Assembly: GCA_964626205.1 (NCBI GenBank)
Contig: CAZVED010000003.1
Span: 70,421 to 134,420 of the forward strand
Length of the DNA: 64,000 nucleotides
DNA from: an uncultured Gammaproteobacteria bacterium
Lineage (GTDB): Bacteria; Patescibacteriota; Patescibacteriia; SG8-24
Direction of reading: 5' to 3'
The notes under the pieces are model-generated. The model was not told the DNA's origin. It was given only the letters and a program-made list of their open reading frames with translations, and ran no database searches. Within the stretch, counting starts at the first letter, position 1; the number at the start of each line of letters is the position of its first letter. The translations under genes were made by a program, and so were the position numbers. This document shows positions 7,573 through 56,886 of this stretch, piece after piece.

Positions 7573-7722
7573 ATGCCGAAACTCTTCGGATCCTCCACTC
7601 GCTTCCGTCGTCGCCAGGTCCGCAAGGTCGTTTGGATTGTCATCTCCGGATTCGCGACACTCGCGCTCGTCGCGACGACCATTGCGCCGAATCTCGTCGT
7701 GATGGGCGGACCGCAGGCCTAA
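7573..7722 (+). CDS. putative small membrane protein (49 aa)
   Basis: MPKLFGSSTRFRRRQVRKVVWIVISGFATLALVATTIAPNLVVMGGPQA: basic N-terminus plus one TM helix. No clear SD. Followed by a terminator. Confidence 0.3.
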   Translation: MPKLFGSSTRFRRRQVRKVVWIVISGFATLALVATTIAPNLVVMGGPQA

Positions 7723-7727
7723 GCGAA

Positions 7728-7756
7728 AAAACAGCCGGGCAATGAGCCCGGTTTTC
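7728..7756 (+). terminator. Rho-independent terminator
   Basis: acagccgggcaatgagcccggtttt: stem CCGGGC/GCCCGG plus T-run. Confidence 0.55.
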
Positions 7757-42249: not shown

Positions 42250-42795
42250 GTGAAACCACGTAACATCGGTCTCGCGGAAGCCGTGAACAACATCTTCGCC
42301 ACGTACGGCAAGAGCGTCCTCTGGGCGCTCGTGGCAGTCGGCATCATCGGTATCGTCGTCCGGTCCGGCGCGTCCGCAGAACTCTTCGGGACGCTCTCGG
42401 TAACGCCGTACTGGTTCGAGCGGGGACTCTCGCTCCTACGGGACTGGCACCCCGGCCTCTACGCGACGCTCTCCCAGAGCGCGCTCCTCATGCTCTTCAT
42501 GAAGCTCATCTTCGCGCCGGTCATGGAAGAGGCGGCATTCCGCTACTTCCCGCTGACGCTCGCGAAGAACATGGAGTACGGGCAGATCCGAGCGATTATC
42601 TTCGTCGTCGGCGGTATCGTATTCGGTGTCCTGCACGGGCATGCGCTCAACATCTTCATCCAGGGCGTCGTCGGAGTCTTCCTCGGCTACCTCTACCTGA
42701 AGAATCATCGTTCGGACCTCATGTCCTACCTGTCCTGCGTGGCGGTACACATGCTCTACAACTTCACGGTCATCATGGCTCAGGTGCTATCCTGA
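42250..42795 (+). CDS. CPBP-family intramembrane metalloprotease (CAAX protease/Abi)
   Basis: Motifs EEAAFRYF (EExxxR), FGVLH (FxxxH) and HMLYN (HxxxN/D). 181 aa. GTG start. Confidence 0.7.
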   Translation: MKPRNIGLAEAVNNIFATYGKSVLWALVAVGIIGIVVRSGASAELFGTLSVTPYWFERGLSLLRDWHPGLYATLSQSALLMLFMKLIFAPVMEEAAFRYFPLTLAKNMEYGQIRAIIFVVGGIVFGVLHGHALNIFIQGVVGVFLGYLYLKNHRSDLMSYLSCVAVHMLYNFTVIMAQVLS

Positions 42796-42854
42796 GCCCC
42801 ACCCACCCCGCCCTCGTATGAGGAGCGGGGCTTTTTTGTGCATAAGAGGGGATA

Positions 42855-42882
42855 TTGCAAAAAAACCGCCTTGTGGTACTCT
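42855..42882 (+). promoter_or_regulatory. promoter-like TTGCAA-N16-TACTCT upstream of tRNA-Asn
   Basis: TTGCAA 42855-42860. TACTCT 42877-42882 preceded by TGG. tRNA starts 20 nt downstream. Confidence 0.45.
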
Positions 42883-42901
42883 ATTCAGGCTTAATGCACG
42901 T

Positions 42902-42976
42902 TCCGGGGTAGCTCAGTGGTAGAGCAGAGGACTGTTAATCCTTTGGTCGTGGGTTCGAATCCCACCCCCGGAGCCA
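42902..42976 (+). tRNA. tRNA-Asn (anticodon GTT)
   Basis: Acceptor TCCGGGG/CCCCGGA. D-arm GCTC-AGTGGTA-GAGC. Anticodon stem-loop GAGGA-CTGTTAA-TCCTT. T-arm GTGGG-TTCGAAT-CCCAC. Discriminator G plus encoded CCA. Confidence 0.9.
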
Positions 42977-42978
42977 TG

Positions 42979-43050
42979 ACCGGACGCGTGTGGAATACCC
43001 ACGCGTCCGGTCAAAAACCCGTCCCGAAAGGGGCGGGTTTTTGATTGGAA
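42979..43050 (+). terminator. double hairpin terminator after tRNA-Asn
   Basis: ccggacgcgtgtggaatacccacgcgtccgg hairpin, then GGTCAAAAACC-cgtcccgaaaggggcggg-TTTTT. Confidence 0.6.
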
Positions 43051-43082
43051 TTATGATGGCTGGTTACGATTGACGACTTTTT

Positions 43083-44354
43083 ATGAAGGTGGTAGTATTT
43101 CGTCAGGAGGTCTTCATCGAAGCTATCAATATGTACAGTTACATCATCCTCCAGCTGCTCTCTGGCATCATCGGCGTCGTTGCGGCTGTGCTGATCCTTA
43201 AGGGCTTGTTCCTCATCAGGAAGAGGTCCGATAGGGCCGCAAGGATCACCATTGACATCGGTGTCGGAGCCTTGTCGCTCGCCGCGATGCTTTTTGTCGT
43301 CACCGGGATCCCGTACCCGCTCCATTTCGCCATGCCGCCGACGATGCAAGCGATGACGCACGATAAGAAGCCCGCGTCCCTGCCGATACTCGCGATGCTC
43401 GAGTTCCTCTCCAAGAGGGATCGGTTCGAGAAGGTCGCGGATATTGGCCGAGATCCCAATGATGTTCCACCGGCCGTGGGCGCCCGCGAACCCGGTATCG
43501 TAAAAATTTCCGTCCGGACCAAGGAAGTGATTTCCGAGGTCGCTCCGGGCGTCTTCTTCAACTATTGGACGTACGATGGCCAAGTGCCCGGACCGATGTA
43601 CCGGGTGAGGGTCGGTGACACGGTGGAGCTCACCATCACGAACGACCCCACGAGCATCCATCCGCACAACATCGACCTACATGCGGTCACGGGTCCTGGC
43701 GGGGGAGCGGCGGTCACGTTGGTTCAGCCAGGTGAGACGAGGACGTTCCGGTGGCTCGCCAAGCACCCCGGGCTCTACGAGTACCATTGCGCGACCGCGA
43801 ACGTCAGTACGCACAACTCGCACGGACAGTACGGCCTGATCCTGGTCGAACCCGAGGGAGGGCTGTCGGCGGTCGACAAGGAGTTCTATCTTATGCAGGG
43901 CGAGCTCTATACGCTGGGCGGCATCGGCAAGAAGGGCCTCATGGCCTTCGATACGCAGGGTCTTATCGACGGTACTCCGACGTACGTCACTTTCAACGGA
44001 AAGATCGAACAGGCGCCGCGCATGAATGCGAAGGTCGGTGACCGCATACGCATGTACGTGGGAGGTGGTGGAGTCAACCTCATTTCGTCCTTTCATGTCA
44101 TCGGCGAAATATTCGATACGGTGTATCCTGAAGGCGCGATGGGTGAAGGCTCGACGGTGCTCAAGAACGTCCAGACGACGGCGGTGCTGCCCGGCGGTTC
44201 GACCATCGTCGAGTTCACTGTCGATGTCCCGGGGGAATTCCTTGTCGTCGATCACGCGCTTGCGAGGATGAACAAAGGGGCGTGGGCGGTCCTTAAAGTG
44301 ACAGGCGACCCGCGCCCGGATATCTACTCGGAAATCACTCCTAAAAAACCTTGA
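43083..44354 (+). CDS. nirK: copper-containing nitrite reductase NirK (two-domain cupredoxin), N-terminally membrane-anchored
   Basis: Type-1/type-2 Cu ligand motifs HPHNIDLHAVTGPGGG (cf. HNxDFHAATG) and YEYHCATANVSTHNSHGQYGLILVEP (cf. YHCAP...H..G M.G). N-terminal TM (IILQLLSGIIGVVAAVLIL). Start 43083 or 43128. Confidence 0.8.
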   Translation: MKVVVFRQEVFIEAINMYSYIILQLLSGIIGVVAAVLILKGLFLIRKRSDRAARITIDIGVGALSLAAMLFVVTGIPYPLHFAMPPTMQAMTHDKKPASLPILAMLEFLSKRDRFEKVADIGRDPNDVPPAVGAREPGIVKISVRTKEVISEVAPGVFFNYWTYDGQVPGPMYRVRVGDTVELTITNDPTSIHPHNIDLHAVTGPGGGAAVTLVQPGETRTFRWLAKHPGLYEYHCATANVSTHNSHGQYGLILVEPEGGLSAVDKEFYLMQGELYTLGGIGKKGLMAFDTQGLIDGTPTYVTFNGKIEQAPRMNAKVGDRIRMYVGGGGVNLISSFHVIGEIFDTVYPEGAMGEGSTVLKNVQTTAVLPGGSTIVEFTVDVPGEFLVVDHALARMNKGAWAVLKVTGDPRPDIYSEITPKKP

Positions 44355-44392
44355 GACCCAAGTGCGTCAGTCGTCCTGAAAACCGACCACGG

Positions 44393-44427
44393 AAAGCCCT
44401 CAACGGCCTCGAAGTTGGGGGTACTCT
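44393..44427 (+). promoter_or_regulatory. conserved 18-nt motif AAAGCCCTCAACGGCCTC followed at 11 nt by a TACTCT -10-like box, upstream of the multicopper oxidase gene
   Basis: Motif at 44393-44410, TACTCT at 44422-44427. GGTACTCTATCCAG resembles the tRNA-Asn promoter GGTACTCTATTCAG. A near-identical motif recurs at 48411-48428. Confidence 0.45.
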
Positions 44428-44484
44428 ATCCAGCTGTTGAGCCATGAATACGCATGTGGGGCGACCCACGTGCGTGGTCAAAAA

Positions 44485-44509
44485 CCAGCCATGAAAGTGG
44501 CTGGTTTTT
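44485..44509 (+). terminator. hairpin plus T-run (GGTCAAAAACC-hairpin-TTTTTG), same architecture as the terminator after tRNA-Asn
   Basis: ggtcaaaaaccagccatgaaagtggctggtttttg. Confidence 0.5.
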
Positions 44510-44634
44510 GTGTTCGCGAGACGCAGACCAATAAGGAGTGGCTTACCCAGAGGCGTATGCCCGCAGTGTGGTACAATGTGTACGAATAATCTCAATGTGC
44601 GACAAGTGTTTGCTGCGGTAACAATATTTACCAA

Positions 44635-46179
44635 GTGAGCGGCCATATGCGGAAACATCATCTTCGGTACGTCCTTCTCTGCCTCGGCGTTGTCTTCGTC
44701 GCCATCATCCTCGTCGGGCAATGGCCTCGGGGAACGCCAATTGCTTCCGTATCGGATCAAGCCTTACGGCCGTCCGTTCTAGAAACGGGGATCGTCAAGG
44801 AATACGAATTGAGAGCGGAAAAGACCATGATTGAACTCCGACCCGGGTTGATGACCGAGGCTTTTGCGTATAACGCCCAAGTACCTGGCCCAGAAATCCG
44901 TCTGAAGCTCGGCGATCGCGTGAAAGTGACGCTCAAGAACAATCTGGATGAACCGACGACCATCCATTGGCACGGCATCCGCGTGCCTGCGGCGATGGAC
45001 GGTGTGCCAATGGTCAGCCAGGAACCGGTGCCTCCCGGCGGAACGTTCGTATACGAATTCGTTCCACCCGATGCCGGGACGTACTTTTATCATTCGCATG
45101 TGGCTGTCGATGATCAGGTCGATCGCGGCCTCTACGGAGCGTTCATCGTCGAGCCGTCCGATGCGCTGGATATGCGGGACGGAGTCTTCGCGCTTGATGA
45201 CTGGCTTCTCGATGCCAATGGTGTACGGTTACCGACCTCGGCTTCCGAACCGGAACTTGACATCGACAATTCCCTTGATGTCGTGAGCGAAGCGACGCTC
45301 GGACCGGTGGCGGCAAACGGCGGCCACATGATGATGGATGGTGGCATGATGATGGGGGATATGGGTGGCAGCGGCATGATGGACCACTCGCTACCCGATG
45401 CAATCAATGGCCGGTTCGGCAACGTGATGACTGTGAACGGCAAGGCGGGTACCGCCGTTGCGCCCATACGGGTCGCACGCGGCGAACGGTTCCTCGCGAG
45501 GTTCCTGAACGCCTCGAACGCCATGACGCACGAGCTGCGGGCATCCGACGGGCGATCACTTTCCATTGTGGCGGTCGATGGGATTCTTCTGACGCGGCCG
45601 TTCGTGACCGACCGGCTCATCTTTCCGCCAGCCAAACGATTCGATGTCGTCATCGAAGCCAAGGATGACGTCGACTGGGCGCTTGAGGGAGGCACGGGCG
45701 TTCGTGCCATTCGCATCCCGGTGGAAGTCGAAGGAGAGACGACGAAGGTCACGGCGCTTCCGACGGGTATATTGGCGACCATGCCGGATCTTGGTGCTGC
45801 CAAGCCCGACGCCACGTTTACTGTGTCGACCGACCGGATGATGAACGCGACTACCTGGCTTCTAAACGGTCGCCCCTTCGATATGGAGGGCGAGAACCCG
45901 ACAGTCGCGACGTTCCCGCGAGGTAAGTGGGTGAAGTTGCGGTTCGTTAATATGAGTCCCATGGCGCATACGATGCATGTGCACGGGCACTTCATGCATG
46001 TCATCGCCAGGAATGGCCAGCGAATCACCGCCGCGACGAGCGAGGACACCGTCGTCGTCCGTGCGATGGAAACGGTCGAGGTCGTCATGCTCGCCGACAA
46101 CCCCGGCGATTGGGTCGTGCATTGCCACAATCTCGAGCACGAAGAGCACGGATTGATGGCGAAGTTCAATGTCGAATAA
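44635..46179 (+). CDS. multicopper oxidase (CueO/PcoA/CopA-type) with Met-rich segment
   Basis: Cu-binding motifs HWHG, HSH, MHVHGHFMHV and HCHNLEHEEHGLM. Met-rich loop GGHMMMDGGMMMGDMGGSGMMDH typical of copper-resistance MCOs. N-terminal TM/signal. Confidence 0.85.
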   Translation: MSGHMRKHHLRYVLLCLGVVFVAIILVGQWPRGTPIASVSDQALRPSVLETGIVKEYELRAEKTMIELRPGLMTEAFAYNAQVPGPEIRLKLGDRVKVTLKNNLDEPTTIHWHGIRVPAAMDGVPMVSQEPVPPGGTFVYEFVPPDAGTYFYHSHVAVDDQVDRGLYGAFIVEPSDALDMRDGVFALDDWLLDANGVRLPTSASEPELDIDNSLDVVSEATLGPVAANGGHMMMDGGMMMGDMGGSGMMDHSLPDAINGRFGNVMTVNGKAGTAVAPIRVARGERFLARFLNASNAMTHELRASDGRSLSIVAVDGILLTRPFVTDRLIFPPAKRFDVVIEAKDDVDWALEGGTGVRAIRIPVEVEGETTKVTALPTGILATMPDLGAAKPDATFTVSTDRMMNATTWLLNGRPFDMEGENPTVATFPRGKWVKLRFVNMSPMAHTMHVHGHFMHVIARNGQRITAATSEDTVVVRAMETVEVVMLADNPGDWVVHCHNLEHEEHGLMAKFNVE

Positions 46180-46184
46180 CTGAT

Positions 46185-48296
46185 ATGTCTGATCTTCTGG
46201 AGTACGTCTGTCCGATGCATCCGGAAGTACGTCGTGACGGTCCCGGACGCTGTCCGGAATGCGGCATGGCGCTTTTGCCGGAAAAGGAAGTAGTACGGGG
46301 GCACGGAATGCACGGATCGTCGCCGCAAAAAGGAAAAGAGCCGTCGTCCAGTAAGCACGAGGGTCATTCCCTCGCGATGTTCGCGCGTAAATTCTGGACT
46401 TCATTAGCGCTGACGATTCCGGTCGTCCTGATCCAATGGGAAGCAATTCCGACGTTCACGGGTTCTTCTTTAGTAGTGGCGCTCCTCGGCTCAGTGGTCT
46501 TCTTTTATGGCGGCTTAGTCTTTCTCCAGGGTGCTGTGCGGGAAGTCCGGGCGAAACTGCCGGGCATGATGACGCTCATCTCGATTGCGATCCTCACCGC
46601 GTACCTCTGGAGCGTCTGGGCGGTGTTCATCGGTGGTGAGGCGCTGTTCTGGGAACTGACCACCCTTATCACGGTCATGCTGCTCGGCCATTGGCTCGAG
46701 ATGCGGGCAGTGCAAAGCACACAGGGTGCGCTCAAAGAGCTTTCCAAGCTCATGCCGGACCGCGTTGAAGTCGTCCGGAACGGTGACACGACGTTGATTC
46801 CACTTACCGAACTTAAAGAGAACGACCTTTTCATCGTGCGTCCGGGGGGCAAGATTGCCGCGGATGGCGTCGTGGACTCAGGTGAATCCGATATCGACGA
46901 GTCCTCTGTGACCGGCGAATCCCGTCCCGTCTCCAAACAGCCGGGCGCGGAAGTCGTCGCTGGCACAGTGAACGGCGACGGTGCGATTACCGTCCGTGCG
47001 ACGAAGATTGGCGAGAAGACGTTTCTTGCGGGCGTCATGCGACTCGTCACTGAGGCGCAGGCGTCGAAATCGCGACTACAGATGCTTTCTGACCGCGCAG
47101 CACGGATGCTTACGGCGGCAGCAATCGGCTCCGGCGCGATCACGCTCGTCGCCTGGCTCTTTTATGCCGAACCTGCCTACGCTGTCGAACGGATGGTAGC
47201 GGTGCTGGTCATCGCCTGTCCGCATGCGCTCGGCTTGGCCGTACCGCTTGTCGCCTCCATCTCCACCATGCTCGCCGCCAGGAACGGCTTTCTGGTAAAG
47301 CAGCGTCTAGCGCTTGAAGCTGCCAAGGACATCGACGTTGTTCTCTTCGACAAGACAGGAACGCTCACAAAGGGCGCGTACGGCGTCGATCACGTATGGA
47401 ACTTCGCAGGCGGAGAGACTCGTGACGTGCTGCGCCTGGCCGCCGCCGTCGATGCGCCCTCTGAGCACGTCATCGCGAAAGCGGTCATGGAGAAAGCGCG
47501 AGAGGACGGCATCGATATTCCCGCCGTTTCCGGATTTTCGCGGATTCCCGGCAAGGGCGTGAAAGGCACCCTCGGCGGAGAAGAAGTGTCCGCAGGCGGA
47601 AAATCGCTGCTCGAACACTATCAGGGCGCCATCGCGGAGCAATACGCGAAAGAGATTGATGCCGAAAATAAAAAAGGGAAGTCCATCATCTATGTGCTGA
47701 AGAGTGGCCAGCCTATCGGGGCGATTGCCCTGGCTGATATCATTCGCGAGGAATCGCGGGAAGCAATTGGGACGCTCAAGGAGATGGGACTCAAGGTCGG
47801 CATAATCACGGGCGACTCCGAGGACGTCGCTGCTTGGGTCGCAGCGGAGCTCGGCATCGATGAGGTCTTTGCCCGTGTCTTGCCGCAGGATAAGGCGGCG
47901 AAAGTGAAGCTCCTCCAGGAAAAGGGGTTGCGGACGGCAATGGTCGGCGACGGAATCAATGATGCACCAGCGCTCACACAGGCCGATCTCGGTATCGCTA
48001 TCGGCGCTGGCACTAACGTGGCTATCGAATCCGCTGGCATCATCCTCGTCAGGAACGACCCTCGCGACATTCCGAAGATCATCACGCTGTCGCGCCTGAC
48101 CTATGCGAAGATGATCCAGAATCTCTGGTGGGCATCGGGCTATAACATCGTCGCTCTGCCTCTCGCGGCCGGTGCCTTGGCCTTCAAGGGTATCGTCATG
48201 CAGCCTGCATGGGCGGCGGTTTTCATGTCACTTTCAACCGTCATTGTCGCTATCAATGCAATGACCTTACGAAAGGCGAAATTGGGACGGGGTTGA
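46185..48296 (+). CDS. copB: copper-translocating P1B-type ATPase (CPH-type, CopB-like)
   Basis: N-terminal CPMHPEV...CPECGMAL metal-binding ribbon and His-rich linker. TM-site CPH ([13 protein letters not shown]). DKTGTLT phosphorylation site. GDGINDAP hinge. The track start 46110 overlaps the oxidase, so the ATG at 46185 is used. Confidence 0.9.
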
Positions 48297-48410
48297 TCGG
48301 TAGTATTTAGCGACTCTTGAGACACTTTTCGATTCGCCTATTTTCGTCCAGGGGTGTCTCATTTTGCCTGACCGGAACATTTTCTTAAAGGGAGCAGAAG
48401 GCCGCCCCAT

Positions 48411-48446
48411 AAAGCCATCAACGGCCTCAACCGTGATCGGACTATC
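48411..48446 (+). promoter_or_regulatory. second copy of the AAAGCC-N-TCAACGGCCTC motif with a downstream ACTATC -10-like box, upstream of the DUF1428 gene
   Basis: AAAGCCATCAACGGCCTC at 48411-48428. ACTATC at 48441-48446. 17/18 nt identical to the motif at 44393-44410. Confidence 0.45.
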
Positions 48447-48548
48447 GAGCCTTAGGGTTTTCTGTTGCTGCTCACCTTACGGAGCCAAAACCTGCCGCGA
48501 GTGGCGAGTTTTTGCTATCATTGATGCATGATTCACTAACACTCCTGT

Positions 48549-48929
48549 ATGTCTTACGTCGACGGTTTCGTGCTCTCCGTTCCCAAGAAGAATATCAAGG
48601 CATACCGCAAGATGGCTGCAGAGGGTGCCAAGATGTGGATGAAGGCCGGCGCGCTGCAGTATTTCGAATGCGTTGGGGATGACCTCAACATCAAGCCCAT
48701 GGGCGGAATGAAGACCATGAACTTCCTCCAGATGGCAAAGGCAAAGAAAAACGAGACGGTTTTCTTTTCATTCATTATCTTCAAGTCGCGCGCCCATCGC
48801 GATGCAGTCAACAAGAAGGTGATGGCAGGAATGGAAGAGCACTACAGCAAGCACAAGGATGTTCCTGTCATGCCGTTTGATATGAAGCGGATGGCCTACG
48901 GGGGGTTCAAGGCAGTCGTCGAGGCCTGA
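48549..48929 (+). CDS. DUF1428-family protein (YbaA-like)
   Basis: MSYVDGFVLSVPKKNIKAYRKMA...ALQYFECVGDD matches the conserved DUF1428 N-terminus. 126 aa. Confidence 0.6.
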   Translation: MSYVDGFVLSVPKKNIKAYRKMAAEGAKMWMKAGALQYFECVGDDLNIKPMGGMKTMNFLQMAKAKKNETVFFSFIIFKSRAHRDAVNKKVMAGMEEHYSKHKDVPVMPFDMKRMAYGGFKAVVEA

Positions 48930-48945
48930 TAGGAAGAGTATCTTC

Positions 48946-49440
48946 ATGAAACGAACATGCATTCTTCTCGCAGGCATCCTGTTTGTCGGTGTTGGCTGCG
49001 GCACATCTCCGCAAAGCACGACAGCGCCGACAGCTGTTCCGTTGAGCTATGTCGGCAATGTTATCGAGGTTACGCGCGAGAACACGAATTTTCGTGAGGT
49101 GCTGTTTACCGGACCGAAAAGCCAGCTGGTGGTGATGAGCATTCCGCCGGGGGGCGAGGTGGGGGAAGAGACGCATTACTACACGGAGCAGACCCTGTTC
49201 TTCCTTTCCGGAACCGGCGAAGCGATGCTTGATGACGAAATATTCCCAATCAGCTCAGGCGACGCCGTCGTGGTGACTGCAGGTACAAAGCATAATTTCA
49301 AGAACACGGGTACCGAAGACCTTAAGCTCTATACGGTCTACGCTCCTCCGAATCATATCGACGGTCGCGTTCACAAGACCAAGGAAGATGCCGATGCCGA
49401 CGTAGCGGATGAGGCAATTGGCGCAACAGCGCCGCGATAA
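48946..49440 (+). CDS. cupin-domain lipoprotein
   Basis: Lipobox LFVGVGC. Cupin_2 core (G-x5-HxH-like ETHYY...G...G..H.F.N). C-terminal block EDLKLYTVYAPPNHIDGRVHKTKEDA is paralogous to the C-terminus of ORF 55924-56886. Confidence 0.65.
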   Translation: MKRTCILLAGILFVGVGCGTSPQSTTAPTAVPLSYVGNVIEVTRENTNFREVLFTGPKSQLVVMSIPPGGEVGEETHYYTEQTLFFLSGTGEAMLDDEIFPISSGDAVVVTAGTKHNFKNTGTEDLKLYTVYAPPNHIDGRVHKTKEDADADVADEAIGATAPR

Positions 49441-49461
49441 CGTTTCCTTGCTTGCTCTAGA

Positions 49462-49495
49462 AAAACACCCCGCGACAGCAGGGTGTTTTTCGTAC
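49462..49495 (+). terminator. Rho-independent terminator
   Basis: aaaaacaccccgcgacagcagggtgttttt. Confidence 0.5.
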
Positions 49496-49532
49496 CACAG
49501 GGGTTGGGGCAGAACCGACGGTGGAGTTTTCC

Positions 49533-49778
49533 TTAGCGTCGCACAGCCCTCATGACCGCAATCAGCACGCACGCACCTAAAAGGGCAACGAGGAAGCTGT
49601 AGAGATCAAAACTTCCTACACCGCTCTTTCCAAAAAAACTCATGATGAGACCACCGATGACCGCACCCACCATGCCGATCACGATATCTCCCAACAGACC
49701 ACCTCTGTCGGAGCCCATCAGCCATGATGCGACTCCACCGACCAGCGCGCCGAACAGTATCCAGATGAGGATGCCCAT
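49533..49778 (-). CDS. GlsB/YeaQ/YmgE-family stress membrane protein (transglycosylase-associated protein)
   Basis: 81 aa. Gly-zipper TM pattern LFGALVGGVASWLMG...IGMVGAVIGGLI characteristic of the family. Confidence 0.7.
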   Translation of the reverse strand: MGILIWILFGALVGGVASWLMGSDRGGLLGDIVIGMVGAVIGGLIMSFFGKSGVGSFDLYSFLVALLGACVLIAVMRAVRR

Positions 49779-49791
49779 AGAGGTGGTGCAG

Positions 49792-50151
49792 TTATTTCTG
49801 TTCTTGCTCGTTGAGCTTCGCGGCGGCTTCCGGGGTTGAAACCGACTTTCCGATCAGCAGCAATTTAATGATTCCGACGGCAAGTGCCCAATACACGAAC
49901 ATTGCCAGCAGTGTCGTCCATTCAAAGATGCTGCCAGCGACCTGTGTTACGCGGAACACGCGAAGAAACGGGGCCGCGAAAATATACGTCGCACCGTAGA
50001 TGAATGCCGTGAAGCCGGCTTCAGCATTCGCGCCGAGGAACTTCAAGATGAATCGGAATGCGAGGAGGGCTTCGATGACTCCGAGCAGATACCATACGAC
50101 CTGTGTGCCTCTGTAGAGAGGCTTGGTGCTGGCAGCGCTAGATGAATCCAT
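49792..50151 (-). CDS. YggT-like small membrane protein (tentative)
   Basis: 119 aa, 2-3 TM. VVWYLLGVIEALLAFRFILKF resembles the YggT repeat. Confidence 0.4.
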   Translation of the reverse strand: MDSSSAASTKPLYRGTQVVWYLLGVIEALLAFRFILKFLGANAEAGFTAFIYGATYIFAAPFLRVFRVTQVAGSIFEWTTLLAMFVYWALAVGIIKLLLIGKSVSTPEAAAKLNEQEQK

Positions 50152-50308
50152 AGGTATCGTGCATTATGCGTGACATAGAATCTGACGTAAGCATACTCCG
50201 CATGTAAGGAACGCGCCATGCGGCATAACGACGCTTGCATGGTCACAGAGCGTGGCTTCCGATAGAATGAATGAGTTGCGCGCATAAAGCCTGCGCGACA
50301 CGAATCCT

Positions 50309-51529
50309 ATGCATGAACTTTCCTCATTCTTCCTCATCGTTTTCATCGGCGTCTTTTTCTCGATGGTCCGACGACGGTTGCATCTCCCGTGGGTGGTCGC
50401 TTTGATTCTTGGTGGTGTGCTTGTTGGTCCTTTCGGGTTGGGTCTGTTGGAGGTGACTCCGGTGACGAGCTTCCTTGCTGATATCGGCTTCATCTTCCTC
50501 ATGTTCATGGCGGGCTTGGAGACTCACACGTCCGCCTTTGAGGGATTCAAGGGAAAGCTTTTACTCCTCTCATTCGTGAACGGCATCATCCCGTTCGTAG
50601 TGGGTGTCAGCATCGGTGTCTTCTTCGGCTACGGCTGGCTGACCTCGCTCCTCGTGGGGGTTATTTTCATCGCGTCATCAATCGCAGTCGTCATTCCATC
50701 GCTTGAGGTGCGTAATCTGCTGCACACGCGACTTGGGCAATCTGTCGTGATGACGAGTGTCATCCAAGATATCACGAGTCTCGGACTCCTGTCGGTGTTG
50801 TTGCAAAGTTATAGCCCGGTCACGTCGCTTCCGCTCGTGGTGTTTTATCCGGTCGTTATTGCGACCATTATCGGCTTCCGGTACGCGCTACCGCGGGTCA
50901 TGGTGCTCATTAGCGGCATGACGAAGGATACGAGGGATGTCTTCCAGCAGGAATTCCGCTCGATGTTCCTCGTGCTGCTCGGCACGGTGGTCGTGTTCGA
51001 ACTTCTCGGCCTGCACCCCATCATCGGCGGGTTCTTCGCAGGGTTCGTCCTTGCTGGCACGGTTACGGATGCGGCATTGAAGGAGAAGCTCCGCACTATC
51101 AGCTACGGCATCTTTATCCCGATGTCGTTTGTGATCGTGGGGCTGCGGACGGATTTGTCGGTATTCACGAGTGATGCGCATGGATGGCCTATCATCGTGG
51201 CAGTCATCGCGGGTTCCATGCTTTCAAAGCTCGGGAGCGGCTATCTTGGTGCGCGCATGGTCGGGTTCCCGCCAGATCAGTCTCTGCTGTTCAGCATCTC
51301 TTCGATCGCGTCGCTTTCCACGACGTTGGCGGTGACCTTTGCCGCATTCACGCTCGGCATACTCGACCAGACCCTTGTGACGGCAATGGTTACGTTGAGC
51401 GTCGTTTCCGTGCTCGTGAGCCCGACGTTGATGGATATCTTCGGCAAGCGCATCAAGAGCTCGCTCTCGCTCACTGAGCGCATTCGGGCCAGTGCAGATT
51501 TCCCACCGGTTGAATCTTTGAAAAATTGA
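50309..51529 (+). CDS. cation:proton antiporter (CPA2/Kef-type Na+/H+ exchanger family)
   Basis: ~12 TM. N-terminal LPWVVALILGGVLVGPFGLGLL and GLE motifs typical of the Na_H_Exchanger family. 406 aa. Confidence 0.8.
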   Translation: MHELSSFFLIVFIGVFFSMVRRRLHLPWVVALILGGVLVGPFGLGLLEVTPVTSFLADIGFIFLMFMAGLETHTSAFEGFKGKLLLLSFVNGIIPFVVGVSIGVFFGYGWLTSLLVGVIFIASSIAVVIPSLEVRNLLHTRLGQSVVMTSVIQDITSLGLLSVLLQSYSPVTSLPLVVFYPVVIATIIGFRYALPRVMVLISGMTKDTRDVFQQEFRSMFLVLLGTVVVFELLGLHPIIGGFFAGFVLAGTVTDAALKEKLRTISYGIFIPMSFVIVGLRTDLSVFTSDAHGWPIIVAVIAGSMLSKLGSGYLGARMVGFPPDQSLLFSISSIASLSTTLAVTFAAFTLGILDQTLVTAMVTLSVVSVLVSPTLMDIFGKRIKSSLSLTERIRASADFPPVESLKN

Positions 51530-51601
51530 AATGTTGCATTCTTGACGAATCGCGGTGATGGCAGTACCGTATCGTTCGGTCTTTGTCACAGAGGAGGCAC
51601 C

Positions 51602-51955
51602 ATGAGCTTTCAGCGTGTGTTTACCGAAGCAAGGTGTGATGGCGTCGTCGCGCTCATCGAGTACCTGCGTTCGCCATGCGGTGCAGACATCATCAGTCTC
51701 GGGTCGAGCACTATCGGCCTTTTGGAGCTCATCCGTTCGGTCGAGGCCGGCGGCAATGTCGACACGGCACGGCTCCGGAGTCTGCATATCGGAAGCAATG
51801 ACGGGTCGGTGACTCCGCTTGCCTGGCTGGAGCAGCTCGCTGCGGAGTTTACGAATCTGCCGCCCTCTACGCAACAGGCATTCGATGCATTTTGCCGCGA
51901 CCTTGTGGCAATGATGACGGCGCCGAGCGTGGAGATCGATCCTGCTACGCTGTGA
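51602..51955 (+). CDS. hypothetical protein
   Basis: ATG preceded by GAGGAGG. 117 aa. The track start 51542 is an extension. Confidence 0.4.
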   Translation: MSFQRVFTEARCDGVVALIEYLRSPCGADIISLGSSTIGLLELIRSVEAGGNVDTARLRSLHIGSNDGSVTPLAWLEQLAAEFTNLPPSTQQAFDAFCRDLVAMMTAPSVEIDPATL

Positions 51956-52007
51956 GAACGTGACAGCCTTCGATGGAGCAGACGTCCTTTTGGAGTAGAG
52001 GTGAAAC

Positions 52008-52331
52008 ATGCCTACGCGACAACGGAAGAAGGGTACGACACTGACACTACTCGCGTTCTGCGAGCGATACGACATCCCCGACACGTTCAATGTGGACAGG
52101 ATTCCGGTCAAGCATCCTGAGACTGGCGGAAAGATCTATCTCATCGGCGCCATGATGGCGGAGGTCTGGTACAGGAAGAAGCCTGGACAAGCGGGGAAAG
52201 AGGGTCGGATGTGGCCCCTTGCTCAAGGCCCCGGCTTCAATCCGGGAAACCTCGAAGTACATCCGGATATTCGGAAAGAGCTCGACAGCGTCGGCTCTTT
52301 CACGAAACGTTCATCTTTGCGTTCGCGGTGA
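52008..52331 (+). CDS. hypothetical basic protein
   Basis: 107 aa. Followed by terminator gagccgacctctttgtggggtcggttttttt. Confidence 0.4.
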   Translation: MPTRQRKKGTTLTLLAFCERYDIPDTFNVDRIPVKHPETGGKIYLIGAMMAEVWYRKKPGQAGKEGRMWPLAQGPGFNPGNLEVHPDIRKELDSVGSFTKRSSLRSR

Positions 52332-52451
52332 GCGGACCTTGAGCCGACCTCTTTGTGGGGTCGGTTTTTTTGTAGCGCATTTCACTTTTTTCGACATGCG
52401 TTGCTCATCACGGCGGTGGTTGGTTTTTGATTGCACTGGTATCGTTCATGC

Positions 52452-52790
52452 ATGAATGAGAAACAGACAAGGTATCTCCGATACCTTAAACACAATCCCG
52501 AACGCTACTGGTTTAAACGGAAGCTGTACGGCTGGGGATGGGTTCCGGTGACTTGGCAGGCGTGGCTGGTCGTCGCGGGGTTTGTCGCATGGATCATCTT
52601 TGTGGCATCGCGCTTCCTGGTAGAAGGTAGGGTGGTCGAGTACGCGCTTTCCTTATTTGGCGCTTCCGTCGCCACTATCGCGATAGGATATTGGAAGGGT
52701 GAGAAACCGCGATGGCAGTGGGGTCTGCCGAAAGAGGACGACGTTACGGCTTCCGAAAAACGTTCCGTGCCCGCTCGGCCAGCGAAGTGA
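52452..52790 (+). CDS. hypothetical small membrane protein
   Basis: MNEKQTRYLRYLKHNP...: 2 TM with Trp-rich flanks. Confidence 0.35.
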   Translation: MNEKQTRYLRYLKHNPERYWFKRKLYGWGWVPVTWQAWLVVAGFVAWIIFVASRFLVEGRVVEYALSLFGASVATIAIGYWKGEKPRWQWGLPKEDDVTASEKRSVPARPAK

Positions 52791-53652
52791 ATTGGTAGGA
52801 TCCACGAGGTGTGACATGTCGCCCCGCGTGGCGCATGTAGGCTCGTGTGGCGTCCATGCCTACGAAGATGAGGAGGCCTAAGAGATAGGACCAGACGAGG
52901 ATGACGAGGAAGCCTGCTACGACGCCGTAGAGCGAGATTTTTGGCACCATGCGGACATAGAGACCGAGAAGGTAGTTTCCAAGAATGAGGAGCGTCGTTG
53001 CCATAAGCGCTCCCGGAAACGCGTCCCTGGCACGGATATCGACGTCGGGAACCATGGTGTAGAGCATGAGGAACATGAGGAGCACCACGAGGAATACCGA
53101 GATGAAGTTTCCGGCGAGAAGCAGACCATGCGGAAGACCGAAGAGATCGCCGAGGAGCGGACCGAACGTGAAGAGGAGTGTCGAGGCGGCGAGGAGTGCG
53201 GCGAAGAAAAACCCGACAGCAAAGGTCAGCACGAACCCCGCCGAGCGTTCACGGAGCGCTTCCCGTGCGGAAGGTGTCCCTGTATCCGTTATTCTCCACA
53301 TCGCGTCGAAGGAGCGGCGCAAATGCGTGTGCATTTGTGAGCCGACGATGAGAAGGATGAGAAGCGCGGTGACAAGCGAGGTCACGGACAGGCCTGTCGA
53401 GGCGAAAGCGGTAAAATGTGGTAGGAGCGCAAGAGCGGTTTCCTCGCCGGCAACCAAGGAGAGCTGCTCAACGAAGACGTCTGGGGTCATGATGTCGCGA
53501 AGGAAGAGTCCGAGAATGGAAAGGATAAGCACGAAGAACGGCGGCATGATGAAGATCGCGTGATAGGCGAAGGTCATCGCGCGTTGGGAAATATCGTCGC
53601 GCTGCATCGCCTGGACGAACATGCGGAGGAACATCATCGGGTGCCTGTGCAT
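52744..53652 (-). CDS. YihY/BrkB-family membrane protein
   Basis: N-terminal AMTFAYHAIFIMPPFFVLIL matches the YihY/virulence factor BrkB signature. 6 TM. 302 aa. Confidence 0.75.
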   Translation of the reverse strand: MHRHPMMFLRMFVQAMQRDDISQRAMTFAYHAIFIMPPFFVLILSILGLFLRDIMTPDVFVEQLSLVAGEETALALLPHFTAFASTGLSVTSLVTALLILLIVGSQMHTHLRRSFDAMWRITDTGTPSAREALRERSAGFVLTFAVGFFFAALLAASTLLFTFGPLLGDLFGLPHGLLLAGNFISVFLVVLLMFLMLYTMVPDVDIRARDAFPGALMATTLLILGNYLLGLYVRMVPKISLYGVVAGFLVILVWSYLLGLLIFVGMDATRAYMRHAGRHVTPRGSYQFTSLAERARNVFRKP

Positions 53653-55923: not shown

Positions 55924-56886
55924 ATGAACGTCTTCTCTTTCGCGCAGCAACGTATCGCCGTCGCCGAGCACCCGTTTTCCCGCAGGCTCTTTTCCGAAGT
56001 CGGTCCCGTGAGCGGTTTCGTTTGGACCGCCATCCGTGTCATGATCGGCTGGTCATGGTTGTCGTCAGGGTGGGGGAAGGTCACTGGCGACGGATGGGGC
56101 CCATCCGTTTTGCGTGCATATTGGGAACGTGCAGTCGCAGTTCCGGAGCAGGGGCGGCCACCTATCACGTACGGATGGTACCGTGATTTCCTTACCATGC
56201 TGCTCGATACGCAAGCGGAGTCATGGATGGCTGGCGCCATCGCGGCCGGTGAAGTTCTCGTGGGCATCGCCCTCATCCTCGGAGCGCTCGTGGGCATCGC
56301 CGCGTTCTTTGGAGCCTTTATGAACATGAATTTCATGCTCGCAGGGACGGCGTCCACCAATCCTGTGCTACTCATCGGTGCGGTCACGCTCATGCTCGCT
56401 TGGAAGACCGCCGGATGGTGGGGTTTGGACCGCTGGCTCCTGCCGTCACTCGGCACGCCATGGTCGCCAGTTTCTCTCGCAGAGCCGCTCATCGGCGCAC
56501 GGAAAGGGTACGTCGGCGACATCGAGCGTCAGACGCTCGAGAATACGTTGTATCGCAAAGTGCTCTACACCGCGCAGCACAGCCAGCTTGTCCTCATGAG
56601 CATCCGACCAGGAGACGAGATCGGGGAAGAGATTCATCACCTCGATCAGTTCATTCGGTTCGAGGCAGGGTCGGCCGATGTTCTCCTCGATGGCGTCCGA
56701 CACGACGTTGGTGCGGACTCCGCCGTGGTCATTCCGGCAGGCATGCGGCATAACGTCATCAACGTCGGAAAGGAGGACTTGAAACTCTACACCGTGTATT
56801 CTCCGCCCGAGCACAAAGATGGTACTGTCCATGCCACGAAAGCGGACGAAAAAGAGGAGCACTTCGACGGCATCACGACGGAATAA
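55924..56886 (+). CDS. DoxX-like membrane domain fused to a C-terminal cupin domain
   Basis: N-terminal 4-TM DoxX-type segment (VWTAIRVMIGWSWLSSGW...). C-terminal 110 aa cupin paralogous to the lipoprotein at 48946 (EDLKLYTVYSPPEHKDGTVHATKADE). Confidence 0.65.
   Translation: MNVFSFAQQRIAVAEHPFSRRLFSEVGPVSGFVWTAIRVMIGWSWLSSGWGKVTGDGWGPSVLRAYWERAVAVPEQGRPPITYGWYRDFLTMLLDTQAESWMAGAIAAGEVLVGIALILGALVGIAAFFGAFMNMNFMLAGTASTNPVLLIGAVTLMLAWKTAGWWGLDRWLLPSLGTPWSPVSLAEPLIGARKGYVGDIERQTLENTLYRKVLYTAQHSQLVLMSIRPGDEIGEEIHHLDQFIRFEAGSADVLLDGVRHDVGADSAVVIPAGMRHNVINVGKEDLKLYTVYSPPEHKDGTVHATKADEKEEHFDGITTE

Follow-up and report, generated by a model that had tools for sequence, protein, structure and literature searches.

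The nitrite reductase NirK of Patescibacteria (CPR) bacteria is already known from published work, and the passages of Danczak et al. 2017 (PMC5581439) and Adv Sci 2025 (PMC12931201) that deal with it describe a widespread enzyme (more than 140 metagenome-assembled genomes and more than 50 lineages) with conserved copper ligands, for which nitrite detoxification, an electron sink and host interaction have been proposed as roles. CPR NirK forms a clade of its own in both papers and was interpreted as not recently transferred (PMC5581439). The NirK described here belongs to the same family; an axial Gln at the type-1 copper, a two-helix anchor and tRNA-linked repeats find no mention in the passages on CPR NirK of these two papers. 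A His2-Cys-Gln type-1 copper site has been described structurally for a single NirK, TsNirK of Thermus scotoductus (PDB 6hbe; PMC6400189), and the motifs that define the P1B-3 subtype of copper ATPases are available (PMC5552934).

Copper genes downstream of tRNA-Asn

The window analysed here, that is, the whole stretch of 64,000 nucleotides, carries a tRNA-Asn(GTT) gene followed by nirK, a multicopper oxidase (MCO) gene, the gene of a copper ATPase with a CPH motif, a DUF1428 gene and a cupin gene, all five on the + strand:

42902-42976, + strand, tRNA-Asn(GTT) with encoded CCA (ARAGORN; Rfam RF00005, 76.5 bits)
43070-43098, + strand, promoter-like site of nirK, TTGACG-17-TAGTAT with TG before the -10 hexamer (sequence scan)
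43131-44354, + strand, nirK, 407 aa (ORF as called mechanically, 43083-44354)
44569-44577, + strand, TGGTACAAT before the MCO gene, a putative extended -10-like element read from the sequence
44647-46179, + strand, three-domain MCO, 510 aa, with three Cu-oxidase domains (ORF as called, 44635-46179)
46185-48296, + strand, P1B-3 (CopB-type) copper ATPase, 703 aa (ORF as called, 46110-48296)
48549-48929, + strand, DUF1428 protein (Pfam PF07237, E 1.3e-30)
48946-49440, + strand, Cupin_2 protein with a signal/lipoprotein-like N-terminus ending in Cys18

The first-pass annotation had named these five genes, the MCO as Met-rich and the ATPase as P1B, and had placed them directly after tRNA-Asn(GTT); family matches and motifs confirmed the gene identities, and ARAGORN and Rfam the tRNA. 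The start of nirK is most likely the ATG at 43131 (MYSYII...), because the promoter-like site falls inside the longer ORF and homologs are about 402 aa long, and the starts of the MCO and ATPase genes were set at 44647 and 46185 because identical database proteins have 510 and 703 aa, respectively.

NirK scored 290.8 bits against TIGR02376 (cut-off 296.3), and its best solved structure by sequence was AniA (E 6e-92, about 48% identity); in Foldseek, the NirK model reached TM-scores of 0.94 normalised to the target 6the and 0.91 to AniA. The AniA-like core contains the type-1 copper residues H179, C220, H228 and Q233 (the axial Gln), the type-2 copper residues H184, H219 and H375, the catalytic D182 and H322, and I324. 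The top matches were 59-85% identical, all of them with the axial Gln, and those named were Patescibacteria. This Gln was invariant in all 120 closest NirK homologs. At the N-terminus, two hydrophobic stretches (residues 1-31 and 37-64) and modelled helices at 3-32 and 35-59 bear out the earlier description of NirK as membrane-anchored, by two transmembrane helices. Because of the positive-inside rule, the catalytic domain is predicted to lie outside the cell; held in the membrane by these two helices, NirK would reduce nitrite to NO. The roles suggested for it in the first-pass annotation, nitrite detoxification or an electron sink, are the customary conjecture of the literature.

In the MCO, there is a signal-anchor at the N-terminus, along with the copper motifs HWHG, HSH, HTMHVH and HCHNLEHEEHGL (with an axial Leu) and a Met-rich stretch, GGHMMMDGGMMMGDMGGSGMMDHS, at 45319-45390. 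Its homologs formed 30 clusters at 55-88% identity, with the next drop to 37%, and the residue at the axial position of the type-1 copper was Leu in 30/30 close homologs and Met in 90/90 distant ones. The ATPase combines an N-terminal Cys-rich HMBD domain (PF19335) and a His-rich stretch with the motifs CPH (CPHAL), YN(x4)P (YNIVALP), MSLST, DKTGT and GDGIND. That it carries CPH instead of CPC had been remarked on earlier; the motif is indeed present, but it is the P1B-3 signature, common to 117 of the 120 ATPase homologs. Among the matches listed, 119 non-identical homologs were 61-78% identical to the ATPase. The MCO and ATPase genes are probably co-transcribed, because the ATPase start lies 6 nt after the MCO stop, and homologs of the two share equal-sized contigs in five further cases. 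No CueR/CsoR regulator was found adjacent to the block in the window; L100, by contrast, has csoR together with a CsoR box.

In E. coli, too, an efflux pump (CopA) is paired with a cuprous oxidase that acts externally (CueO). The P1B-3 (CopB-type) ATPase would pump copper out of the cytoplasm and protect the cell, the Met-rich MCO would oxidise Cu(I) outside it, and the ATPase might also supply copper to both external enzymes, NirK and MCO. The block reads as a set of extracytoplasmic copper enzymes in a Patescibacteria (CPR) genome, and NirK, MCO and ATPase all belong to clades typical of these bacteria.

Repeated elements in the window and in relatives

The intergenic regions after the tRNA and after nirK aligned with each other with a local alignment score of 52, compared with 15.9 +/- 2.2 for shuffled sequences, and the duplicated intergenic architecture of the first-pass annotation is therefore real and well beyond chance. 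Its elements, and a degenerate one further downstream, are the following:

42969-43046, + strand, module copy 1: GAGCCA-TGA, hairpin 1, GGTCAAAAACC, hairpin 2 with a T-run (nhmmer E 1.6e-22)
44346-44443, + strand, right arm after nirK: TTGAGACCCAAGTGCGTC ... GAAAGCCCTCAACGGCCTC ... GGTACTCTATCCAG ... TTGAGCCA
44436-44514, + strand, module copy 2: GAGCCA-TGA, hairpin 1, hairpin 2, T-run (nhmmer E 4e-21)
48405-48516, + strand, degenerate third copy: AAAGCCATCAACGGCCTC (arm box), CGAGCCT, CGGAGCCA, AAAACC, hairpin, T-run

The module has about 80 nt and two hairpins, with compensatory changes in 12 of the 28 pairs of its consensus fold. Copy 1 starts with the tRNA-Asn 3' end itself (CGGAGCCA, 42969-42976), followed by hairpin 1 at about 42980-43010 and by hairpin 2 with its T-run at about 43009-43046, which resembles an intrinsic terminator. 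Copies 1 and 2 scored 89.6 and 75.5 bits with the covariance model and are 72-79% identical; the hairpin-2 stem of copy 2, CCAGCCA/TGGCTGG, matches positions 1-33 of L170, upstream of an Arr-MCO pair. The last part of the right arm is a degenerate version of the tRNA 3' end; the arm has homologs at L081 11312-11414 and L084 7452-7547, but despite this conserved sequence no conserved secondary structure was found in it.

In the third copy, hairpin 1 is missing; CGGAGCCA at 48480-48487 equals the tRNA-Asn 3' end in 8/8 letters, and there is a terminator-like hairpin at 48493-48506 (terminator scan) with a T-run. Its local alignment scores were 31 and 25 (shuffle maxima, 30 and 24), and an independent nhmmer profile, an arm-only profile and the covariance model gave E values of 0.007, 3.5 and 0.95, respectively, which points weakly to a relic of the repeat. 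It contains the 8-nt tRNA-Asn match reported before, which exists, although not at 48517, near which it had been placed. The proposed search for a partial direct repeat of the tRNA-Asn 3' end returned repeats much longer than 8 nt. These repeats mark off two segments, one with nirK (42977-44443) and one with MCO-ATPase (44444-48487). The DUF1428 gene, at most a putative member of the block, lies outside them, and so does the Cupin_2 gene. At L129, a cupin gene whose product is 70% identical to that of the window lies near nirK, with msrA and msrB between. Just 6-8 nt of the window repeats derive from the tRNA and the remainder is tRNA trailer; therefore, the copies could stem from local terminator duplication.

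The same elements occur in relatives. In an Uhrbacteria genome (L081), nirK is beside tRNA-Gln and is flanked on either side by the module, the first copy of which is fused to the tRNA-Gln 3' end GAGCCA; the two copies are 94-99% identical, and the whole post-nirK intergenic region is homologous to that of the window (E about 1e-53). In L084, the arm and GAGCCATGA close a 5.5-kb TIR/SLATT/methyltransferase/helicase insert after tRNA-Asn, and a further tRNA-Asn 3' end remnant lies at 7715-7733. In L086, an exact 20-nt duplicate of the tRNA-Asn 3' end, 117 nt past the tRNA, is followed by the module and nirK, this module being 80% identical to window copy 1. Across genomes the modules before nirK are 77-80% identical, compared with 72% between the two window copies. 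The tRNA-Asn of one relative bears a group I intron.

History of the locus

The RpoD scan of the genome collection covered the matches listed, and closer relatives may lie beyond them. In five lineages, tRNA-Asn precedes nirK on the same strand, at distances of 154 nt (window), 235 nt (L086), 1.4 kb (L088/L090), 5.5 kb (L100) and 8 kb (L084). In three of the five (window, L086 and L088/L090), dnaG-rpoD is also upstream, and at L086, L088 and L090 RpoD is 72-73% and NirK 75% identical to the window proteins. Therefore, nirK looks ancestral at this locus. The proposed synteny comparison showed that none of the relatives examined has the MCO-ATPase pair after its nirK. A foreign composition was not found: the tetranucleotide distance of the block had z = +0.75, with 21 of 118 sequence windows deviating more, its GC3 of 0.66-0.75 lay within the range of flanking genes (0.65-0.85), and the codon signature also matched the contig, the compositional outlier being the neighbouring 47.5-53 kb region. 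The 64-kb window yielded no integrase or recombinase, and no viral or plasmid-like carrier was found.

On balance, with a probability of about 0.55, the block was not imported as a unit, nirK having long resided at a hot spot for insertions and the MCO-ATPase pair being a later, lineage-specific addition. The hot spot in this clade would be the tRNA-Asn 3' end, with nirK as its neighbour since before the lineages diverged and now between two copies of the module (GAGCCA and two hairpins). The MCO-ATPase pair would have been added later, in the window lineage, at the second module copy, leaving the degenerate third copy before DUF1428. Either the donor DNA would have come from other CPR bacteria, or the events would lie so far back that composition has equilibrated. 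As the mechanism we infer either a trans-acting integrase or homologous recombination of one module with another. A recent foreign import is disfavoured because the three genes are typical of CPR and nirK has long been at this spot. The horizontally acquired island proposed at first is supported in part, by the direct repeats, the arm and module at another tRNA, the arm at another insert, and the lack of MCO-ATPase in relatives, whereas composition, the conserved nirK locus, the CPR homologs, the missing integrase and the position of DUF1428 and cupin outside the repeats do not agree with it. Several observations count against the preferred reading: the window has no integrase, support for the third copy is weak, the tRNA-derived part of the repeats is short, an empty site, with tRNA-Asn directly followed by DUF1428, was not found in any relative, and the closest NirKs, those of L083 (85%) and L081 (83%), are in other genomic contexts, which may reflect vertical inheritance or intra-CPR transfer.

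It is possible, although clearly less probable, that nothing moved and the block is ancestral, the modules being paralogous terminators or RNA-processing hairpins that arose by local duplication or gene conversion and the differences among relatives ordinary CPR gene loss and rearrangement. The native composition, the conserved tRNA-Asn...nirK order, the absence of an integrase and the structurally conserved, terminator-like double hairpin with its T-run would fit such a history, and the near-identity of the L081 copies suggests gene conversion; yet the arm and module accompany nirK at a different tRNA (tRNA-Gln) and in another context in L081, an unrelated insert of defence genes at the tRNA-Asn of L084 is closed by the arm, and the exact 20-nt duplication in L086 is, like similar ones in other CPR loci, a classic integration scar. 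That the arm is conserved in sequence and not in structure likewise counts against such a history.

Rather doubtful is a cassette system in which hairpin 1 would be the site of a trans-acting recombinase and units of module, cargo and arm (nirK, MCO-ATPase, Arr-MCO, defence genes) would be excised and re-inserted at tRNA 3' ends with GAGCCA. Hairpin 1 has 12-13-bp inverted repeats with a short spacer, resembling lox or dif sites, and motif ACCCACGTGCGTC recurs in both the arm and hairpin 1; the cargo varies between conserved ends, and two different tRNAs with the common GAGCCA end serve as sites. Module variants also co-segregate with the downstream cargo, copy 1 resembling the pre-nirK module of L086 and copy 2 sharing its hairpin-2 stem with L170 upstream of Arr-MCO. 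However, about 1 Mb of CPR loci yielded just a handful of copies, neither a recombinase nor a viral or plasmid-like carrier was found, and compensatory hairpin changes are more typical of an RNA element.

A single, horizontally acquired island that runs from nirK to cupin and came in recently at tRNA-Asn from a donor with a different metabolism is already largely refuted and very improbable, since tRNA adjacency, direct repeats and accessory-type cargo are outweighed by a composition that deviates in the 47.5-53 kb neighbour region instead of the block, repeats that divide the block in two and leave out DUF1428 and cupin, nearest homologs from CPR bacteria for all three cargo genes, the conserved nirK position and the lack of an integrase.

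Comparison with known systems

AniA of Neisseria gonorrhoeae (PDB 1kbv, 5tb7), one of the class II / clade II NirKs, resembles the window NirK in sequence and fold. Common to both are SSFHVIGEIFD, the catalytic Asp and His, the three type-2 copper His, the His-Cys-His ligands of the type-1 copper and a tether to the cell envelope instead of a soluble form; AniA, however, is a lipoprotein with an axial Met, whereas the window NirK has two transmembrane helices and an axial Gln (Q233). TsNirK, a distant match (E 6.6e-31), shares the Gln of the type-1 copper site, but it has three domains, with an extra C-terminal cupredoxin, and Ser and Val for the catalytic Asp and for Ile, whereas CPR NirK has two domains and retains Asp, His and Ile. 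The MCO is like CueO/CopA-type MCOs in its three cupredoxin domains, its Met-rich insert and all four motifs that bind copper, and differs from them in the axial residue of the type-1 copper, which in its clade is Leu instead of Met. The ATPase has the CPH, GYN(x4)P and MSxST motifs and the His-rich N-terminus of the CopB P1B-3 ATPases of A. fulgidus and E. hirae, and differs from them in its N-terminal Cys-rich HMBD.

Compared with tRNA-targeting genomic islands and tandem integrative elements, the window block has no integrase, very small units (1.5 and 4 kb), a native composition and a repeat with just 6-8 tRNA-derived nt and a structured trailer of about 70 nt. It is like them in the insertion at a tRNA 3' end, in direct repeats that hold this end and delimit serial units, and in a cargo that varies at the same tRNA among relatives.

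Gene content and composition of the tRNA-Asn block

A tRNA-Asn(GTT) gene was located by ARAGORN at 42902-42976 on the + strand, where Rfam concurred, and it is followed by five open reading frames in the same orientation:

43083-44354, + strand, NirK, with Cu-oxidase_3/_2 domains (290.8 bits to TIGR02376, whose cut-off is 296.3)
44635-46179, + strand, multicopper oxidase (MCO), with three Cu-oxidase domains
46110-48296, + strand, P-type copper ATPase, with E1-E2 ATPase, HAD and HMBD domains (TIGR01511, 557 bits)
48549-48929, + strand, DUF1428 protein
48946-49440, + strand, Cupin_2 protein

The identities proposed in the first-pass annotation, i.e. tRNA-Asn beside three copper genes that are followed by DUF1428 and cupin genes, were borne out by ARAGORN and Rfam, Pfam, NCBIfam and sequence motifs. 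The nirK gene probably starts at 43131, because a promoter-like site (43070-43098) lies within the longer reading frame and the homologs are of about 402 residues; the MCO and ATPase genes probably start at 44647 and 46185, respectively. A further promoter is predicted at 44569-44577. Upstream of tRNA-Asn the window carries dnaG, rpoD and a CPBP-family protease gene, and elsewhere it encodes metabolic enzymes (acetate kinase, alanine dehydrogenase, class I ribonucleotide reductase), information-processing proteins (LepA, RecJ, LigA, QueA) and envelope functions (a pilus-type gene cluster and Lgt). Because the best RpoD relatives among the matches listed in a scan of genome contigs were Patescibacteria (61-71% identical), the organism was taken to be a GC-rich (~59%) bacterium of the candidate phyla radiation (CPR). 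A second cupin of the neighbourhood, a DoxX-cupin fusion protein of 320 aa, is encoded 6.5 kb downstream (55924-56886).

The block had been proposed to be a horizontally acquired island, but no foreign composition was found: 42977-48487 differed from the remaining window sequence by a tetranucleotide distance of z = +0.75 (21 of the 118 windows compared deviated more), the GC3 values of nirK, MCO and ATPase (0.66-0.75) fell inside the range of the flanking genes (0.65-0.85), and codon usage was ordinary, within the flanking-gene range as well. The NirK matches of 59-85% identity were Patescibacteria wherever the source was named. More than 100 ATPase homologs of 61-78% identity were among the matches listed, those specifically named being CPR bacteria, and the nearest MCO homolog besides an identical one (protein P0122, 88% identity) belongs to a close clade of about 30 clusters (55-88% identity) whose named members are Patescibacteria, the next matches dropping to 37%. 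Judged by their sequences, nirK, MCO and ATPase are not foreign genes, their closest homologs being those of CPR.

The compositional outlier of the window is a different region at 47.5-53 kb (z = 3.0, GC 0.53-0.56 against ~0.59), which lies mostly downstream of the nirK-MCO-ATPase block. This region (47500-53000) contains the DUF1428 and cupin genes, genes for a Transgly_assoc protein, a YGGT-like protein and a Na+/H+ exchanger, and three open reading frames with no family match (51542-52790). No recombinase domain was detected among the window reading frames scanned with Pfam, which were a part of those in the 64-kb window.

Copper sites and predicted roles of the three proteins

The nearest solved structure to NirK by sequence is the copper nitrite reductase AniA of Neisseria gonorrhoeae (E 6e-92). 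An AlphaFold2 model based on an alignment of 45 homologs (mean pLDDT 76) displayed the two-cupredoxin-domain fold of copper nitrite reductases, with target-normalised Foldseek TM-scores of 0.94 to 6the (rmsd 1.9 A) and 0.91 to AniA. The type-2 copper ligands H184, H219 and H375, together with D182, H322 and I324, were invariant across the 45 aligned homologs; the motifs HPHNIDLH, SSFHVI and VDHA were identified, and the alignment with AniA was gap-free around the type-2 copper and the catalytic residues. At the type-1 site, His179, Cys220 and His228 are present, and the axial Met is absent, Gln233 (codon 43827-43829) taking its place in an ungapped alignment of NSHGQYG with IANGMYG of AniA. 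All of the 120 closest homologs (at least 59% identity) share this axial Gln, and more distant ones (47-53%) carry Met. The equivalog cut-off of TIGR02376 was narrowly missed. The N-terminus consists of two hydrophobic helices with the intervening loop RKRSDRAAR, and the positive-inside rule applied to this loop would place the catalytic domain outside the cell.

The only structural precedent of a Gln-coordinated type-1 copper in a NirK is the Thermus scotoductus enzyme (TsNirK, 6hbe; PMC6400189), and by analogy with it the axial Gln appears compatible with an active NirK. TsNirK comprises three domains and uses Ser as a catalytic residue, whereas the window NirK is a two-domain protein with Asp182, and TsNirK therefore represents a different class. 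In the portions of the published work on CPR NirK considered here (PMC5581439; PMC12931201), the protein is described as widespread, forming a clade of its own and free of recent transfer, and its copper ligands are described as conserved. As far as those portions go, the axial Gln of the whole CPR NirK clade, as well as the axial Leu of the CPR MCO clade, seems to have been overlooked by ecological papers that argue function from "conserved ligands".

The MCO matches Pfam PF07732, PF00394 and PF07731, and its copper motifs are complete (HWHG at residue 107, HSH at 149, HTMHVH at 441 and HCHNLEHEEHGL at 492-503). A Met-rich insert of 24 residues (GGHMMMDGGMMMGDMGGSGMMDHS, residues 225-248) lies near the type-1 copper site, whose axial residue is Leu and not Met. 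The axial Leu was found in 30/30 close homologs and Met in 90/90 distant bacterial homologs; axial Leu at type-1 copper is also known from high-potential fungal laccases. Since the protein scores under the CueO and CopA equivalog cut-offs, it was considered a family member rather than an ortholog of either.

The ATPase contains CPHAL (residue 345), DKTGT (389), YNIVALP (653) and MSLST (681), an N-terminal His-rich stretch and an HMBD domain, and it clearly exceeds the TIGR01511 cut-off of 397 bits. Subtype P1B-3 is defined by CPH in TM6, GYN(x4)P in TM7, MSxST in TM8 and a His-rich N-terminal region (PMC5552934), and the motifs of the window protein are, at the level of sequence, the P1B-3/CopB signature. 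The CPH motif in place of CPC, singled out earlier as an oddity, turned out to be normal for this subtype and common to 117 of the 120 ATPase homologs. MCO and ATPase homologs were found on common contigs in five further cases (matched by identical length), and the pair was hence regarded as a conserved unit.

According to these assignments, NirK would reduce nitrite to NO outside the membrane, the CopB-type pump would export copper and the MCO would oxidise Cu(I), and the pump may additionally feed copper to NirK and the MCO. No cupredoxin that could serve as electron donor is encoded in the window. In the loci retrieved for comparison (L numbers), the copper genes beside nirK comprise those for an HMA-DsbD_2-cupredoxin protein and an ATPase in L086, a csoR-copA-cupredoxin cluster in L100, an MCO-like gene in L089 and L093 and an ATPase gene in L128. 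The repair genes msrA or msrB lie beside nirK in L086 (5395-5781), L088 (9132-9578) and L129 (211-1590), a hemerythrin gene does so once (L083, 1131-1811), and a 70%-identical homolog of the window cupin was also found once beside a CPR nirK. This recurrence of copper-handling and stress-repair genes beside nirK favours a protective or nitrosative-stress setting for the predicted enzyme, and the repair genes in particular hint at oxidative or nitrosative stress.

Repeats at the tRNA 3' end and the locus in relatives

The intergenic regions after tRNA-Asn, after nirK and after the ATPase gene are mutually related. The module that they have in common spans ~80 nt and is made up of GAGCCA (with which the tRNA terminates), TGA, hairpin 1 (a stem of 12-14 bp), GGTCAAAAACC, hairpin 2 and a T-run, so that the tRNA-derived part of each repeat amounts to 6-8 nt only. 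The first-pass annotation had pointed to duplicated intergenic architectures and to a short match to the tRNA-Asn 3' end, and repeats bearing this end were strongly supported in two copies and weakly in a third. Copy 1 (42969-43046) and copy 2 (44436-44514) aligned with a score of 52, compared with 15.9 +/- 2.2 for shuffled sequences, and are 72% identical. In the third copy (48405-48516) a TCAACGGCCTC box and a terminator hairpin are present, as is CGGAGCCA without mismatch (48480-48487), and hairpin 1 is missing; its E value was 0.007, 3.5 or 0.95 depending on the search model. Both hairpins are kept in six module copies from four genomes, with compensatory changes in 12 of the 28 pairs. Upstream of copy 2, after nirK, runs an arm of ~95 nt (TTGAGACCCAAGTGCGTC...GAAAGCCCTCAACGGCCTC...GAGCCA) that is conserved in sequence and not in structure.

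Two shorter repeats were also observed. The first, GGTACTCTATYCAG, occurs at 42875-42888, in the -10 part of the putative promoter of tRNA-Asn, and at 44420-44433, in the arm directly before GAGCCA, with ~0.33 chance matches expected at up to 2 mismatches. The second, (G)ACCCACGTGCGTC(TG), directly follows the nirK stop codon and recurs as the 3' half of hairpin 1 (44356-44369 and 44461-44473 in the window; 11324-11339 and 11431-11446 in L081; 7465-7478 in L084), and the pair could represent protein-binding sites or an alternative RNA pairing.

When 91 further loci encoding a NirK or MCO relative were compared with the window, five lineages, that of the window included, had tRNA-Asn upstream of nirK in the same orientation.

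Sequence between tRNA-Asn and nirK in the five lineages
Window: 154 nt; module copy 1 and promoter
L086/L087: 235 nt; an insert of 117 nt, a second copy of the tRNA 3' end, and the module
L088/L090: 1.4 kb; msrA plus one small ORF (group I intron within the tRNA)
L084: 8 kb; defence genes, transporter and rhodanese
L100: 5.5 kb; csoR, DUF305, HMA-type ATPase, HMA-DsbD_2 and cupredoxin genes

The dnaG-rpoD genes are also found upstream in L086, L088 and L090, whose RpoD and NirK are 72-73% and 75% identical, respectively, to those of the window; nirK lies away from tRNA-Asn in L081, L083, L085 and L089. The MCO-ATPase pair is absent after nirK in every other locus examined, a set that holds no same-genus relatives. 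The synteny thus cuts both ways for the proposed acquisition, since the nirK position kept in five lineages speaks against a recent gain of this gene, and the absence of MCO-ATPase beside nirK elsewhere speaks for the addition of the pair.

In L086, 20 nt of the tRNA-Asn 3' end recur unchanged 117 nt past the tRNA, with the module and nirK behind them. A 5.5-kb insert with TIR, SLATT, methyltransferase and helicase genes directly follows the tRNA-Asn trailer in L084 and ends in an arm like that of the window, then GAGCCATGA and a terminator, with a tRNA-Asn 3' remnant 140 nt beyond. The Uhrbacteria locus L081 (GCA_016205965.1) encodes a NirK 83% identical to that of the window among other neighbours, namely FtsEX on the upstream side and NMT1 with a two-component system on the downstream side; nirK has a module on both sides there, the first of which is joined to a tRNA-Gln 3' end that likewise terminates in GAGCCA, and the intergenic region after nirK is homologous over its full length to that of the window. 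Identities among the modules before nirK amount to 77-80% for the window, L086 and L081, compared with 72% for the two window copies; module variants follow the cargo. A covariance model found no new full module copies in ~0.96 Mb of CPR loci, its sole extra match being a partial hairpin 2 at the contig end of L170, where the hairpin-2 stem of copy 2 (before the MCO gene) recurs upstream of an Arr-MCO pair. The module was absent from the tRNA-Asn trailers of the more distant CPR genomes L002, L019 and L100, the arm profile found no copies besides those in the window, L081/L082 and L084, and in the viral contigs searched the arm-GAGCCATGA pattern and relatives of the window NirK were both absent.

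Several further features of tRNA genes were observed in the comparison loci. The last 16 nt of a tRNA are near-exactly duplicated 100-350 nt downstream in many CPR loci (L004, L010, L107, L108, L134, L138, L139 and L156; 2.5 kb in L108), including a tRNA-Ala end duplicated just upstream of nirK in L107 and L108, and these duplicates resemble traces left by integration events at tRNA 3' ends. The tRNA-Asn(GTT) of L088 (8269-8609) and L090 (6298-6638), missed by ARAGORN, contains a group I intron of ~266 nt in its anticodon loop (Rfam RF00028, E 7e-18, 70.6 bits at a gathering threshold of 50). In L001 (12520-12592) and L002 (20844-20916) the contig ends at, or within ~150 nt after, the tRNA-Asn downstream of rpoD, which would fit strain-variable sequence at this tRNA. 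In the low-GC CPR locus L100 (872-7784), tRNA-Asn, copper genes and nirK occur together a second time, independently of the window: downstream of the tRNA lie a promoter containing a CsoR-type palindrome (ATACCCCATGGGGGTAT), a small gene for a putative CsoR assigned by eye, DUF305, HMA-type copper ATPase, HMA-DsbD_2, cupredoxin and hypothetical genes, and nirK.

Origin of the block and comparison with known systems

The arrangement of the locus can be read as accretion at a tRNA hot spot. In this clade, the 3' end of tRNA-Asn would be a favoured site of insertion, nirK would have long resided beside it, bracketed by att-like repeats, and the MCO-ATPase pair would have been added at the second repeat in the window lineage, DUF1428 and cupin lying outside the repeats. 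An integrase supplied in trans and recombination of the Campbell type between the 80-nt modules, mediated by RecA, are candidate mechanisms. The acquired island of the first-pass annotation thus survives in this weaker form, within CPR and not as a recent event for nirK; a recent import from a foreign source is refuted by the native composition, the CPR homologs and the nirK position kept in five lineages.

The main rival explanation holds that nothing ever moved and that the modules are duplicated terminators. The short tRNA-derived part of each repeat is in its favour, as is the finding that no empty site among the relatives and no junction was encountered, but it accounts poorly for a module-flanked nirK beside tRNA-Gln in another context (L081) and for a defence insert closed by the arm (L084), and we regard it as the less likely of the two. 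An element of the IS200/IS605 type with hairpin ends was dropped, for it would leave the duplicated flanks on both sides of hairpin 1 unexplained. Integron cassettes were rejected as well, because the repeats begin with a tRNA 3' end and contain a T-run terminator, and no integrase was present among the scanned reading frames. A further idea, in which the arm is a minihelix resembling tRNA or else a decayed tRNA, was discarded on the weak consensus fold (-8.5 kcal/mol); the window arm can form a 7-bp acceptor-like stem, and those of L081 and the third copy cannot. Rfam reported the tRNA alone in 42700-49600, and an RNAI match across the T-arm of the tRNA and the two hairpins, which at 34 bits stayed below the gathering threshold of 47, was taken as chance.

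Accretion at the tRNA hot spot could be extended to a far bolder and, in our estimation, rather improbable picture, in which CPR possess small cassettes devoid of an integrase and type-1 copper sites retuned for unusual electron donors. Each cassette would combine a double-hairpin module on the left with a cargo under its own promoter and a conserved arm on the right, would target tRNA 3' ends in GAGCCA and would shuffle nirK, MCO-CopB, Arr-MCO and defence genes between genomes, with a lox/dif-like hairpin 1 as recombination site. The changes from Met to Gln in NirK and from Met to Leu in the MCO could, separately, be adaptations to the electron donors of organisms that have no respiratory chain.

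The locus would provide a coordinate-level case of a tiny CPR genome gaining accessory genes at a tRNA hot spot with no obvious integrase, and its conserved repeat and arm can be searched for in complete genomes. As for the genes themselves, NirK has already been documented in CPR, and the MCO and the CopB-type ATPase are typical of these bacteria. Because all three genes are already typical of CPR, the block represents one more example of them rather than a new system.
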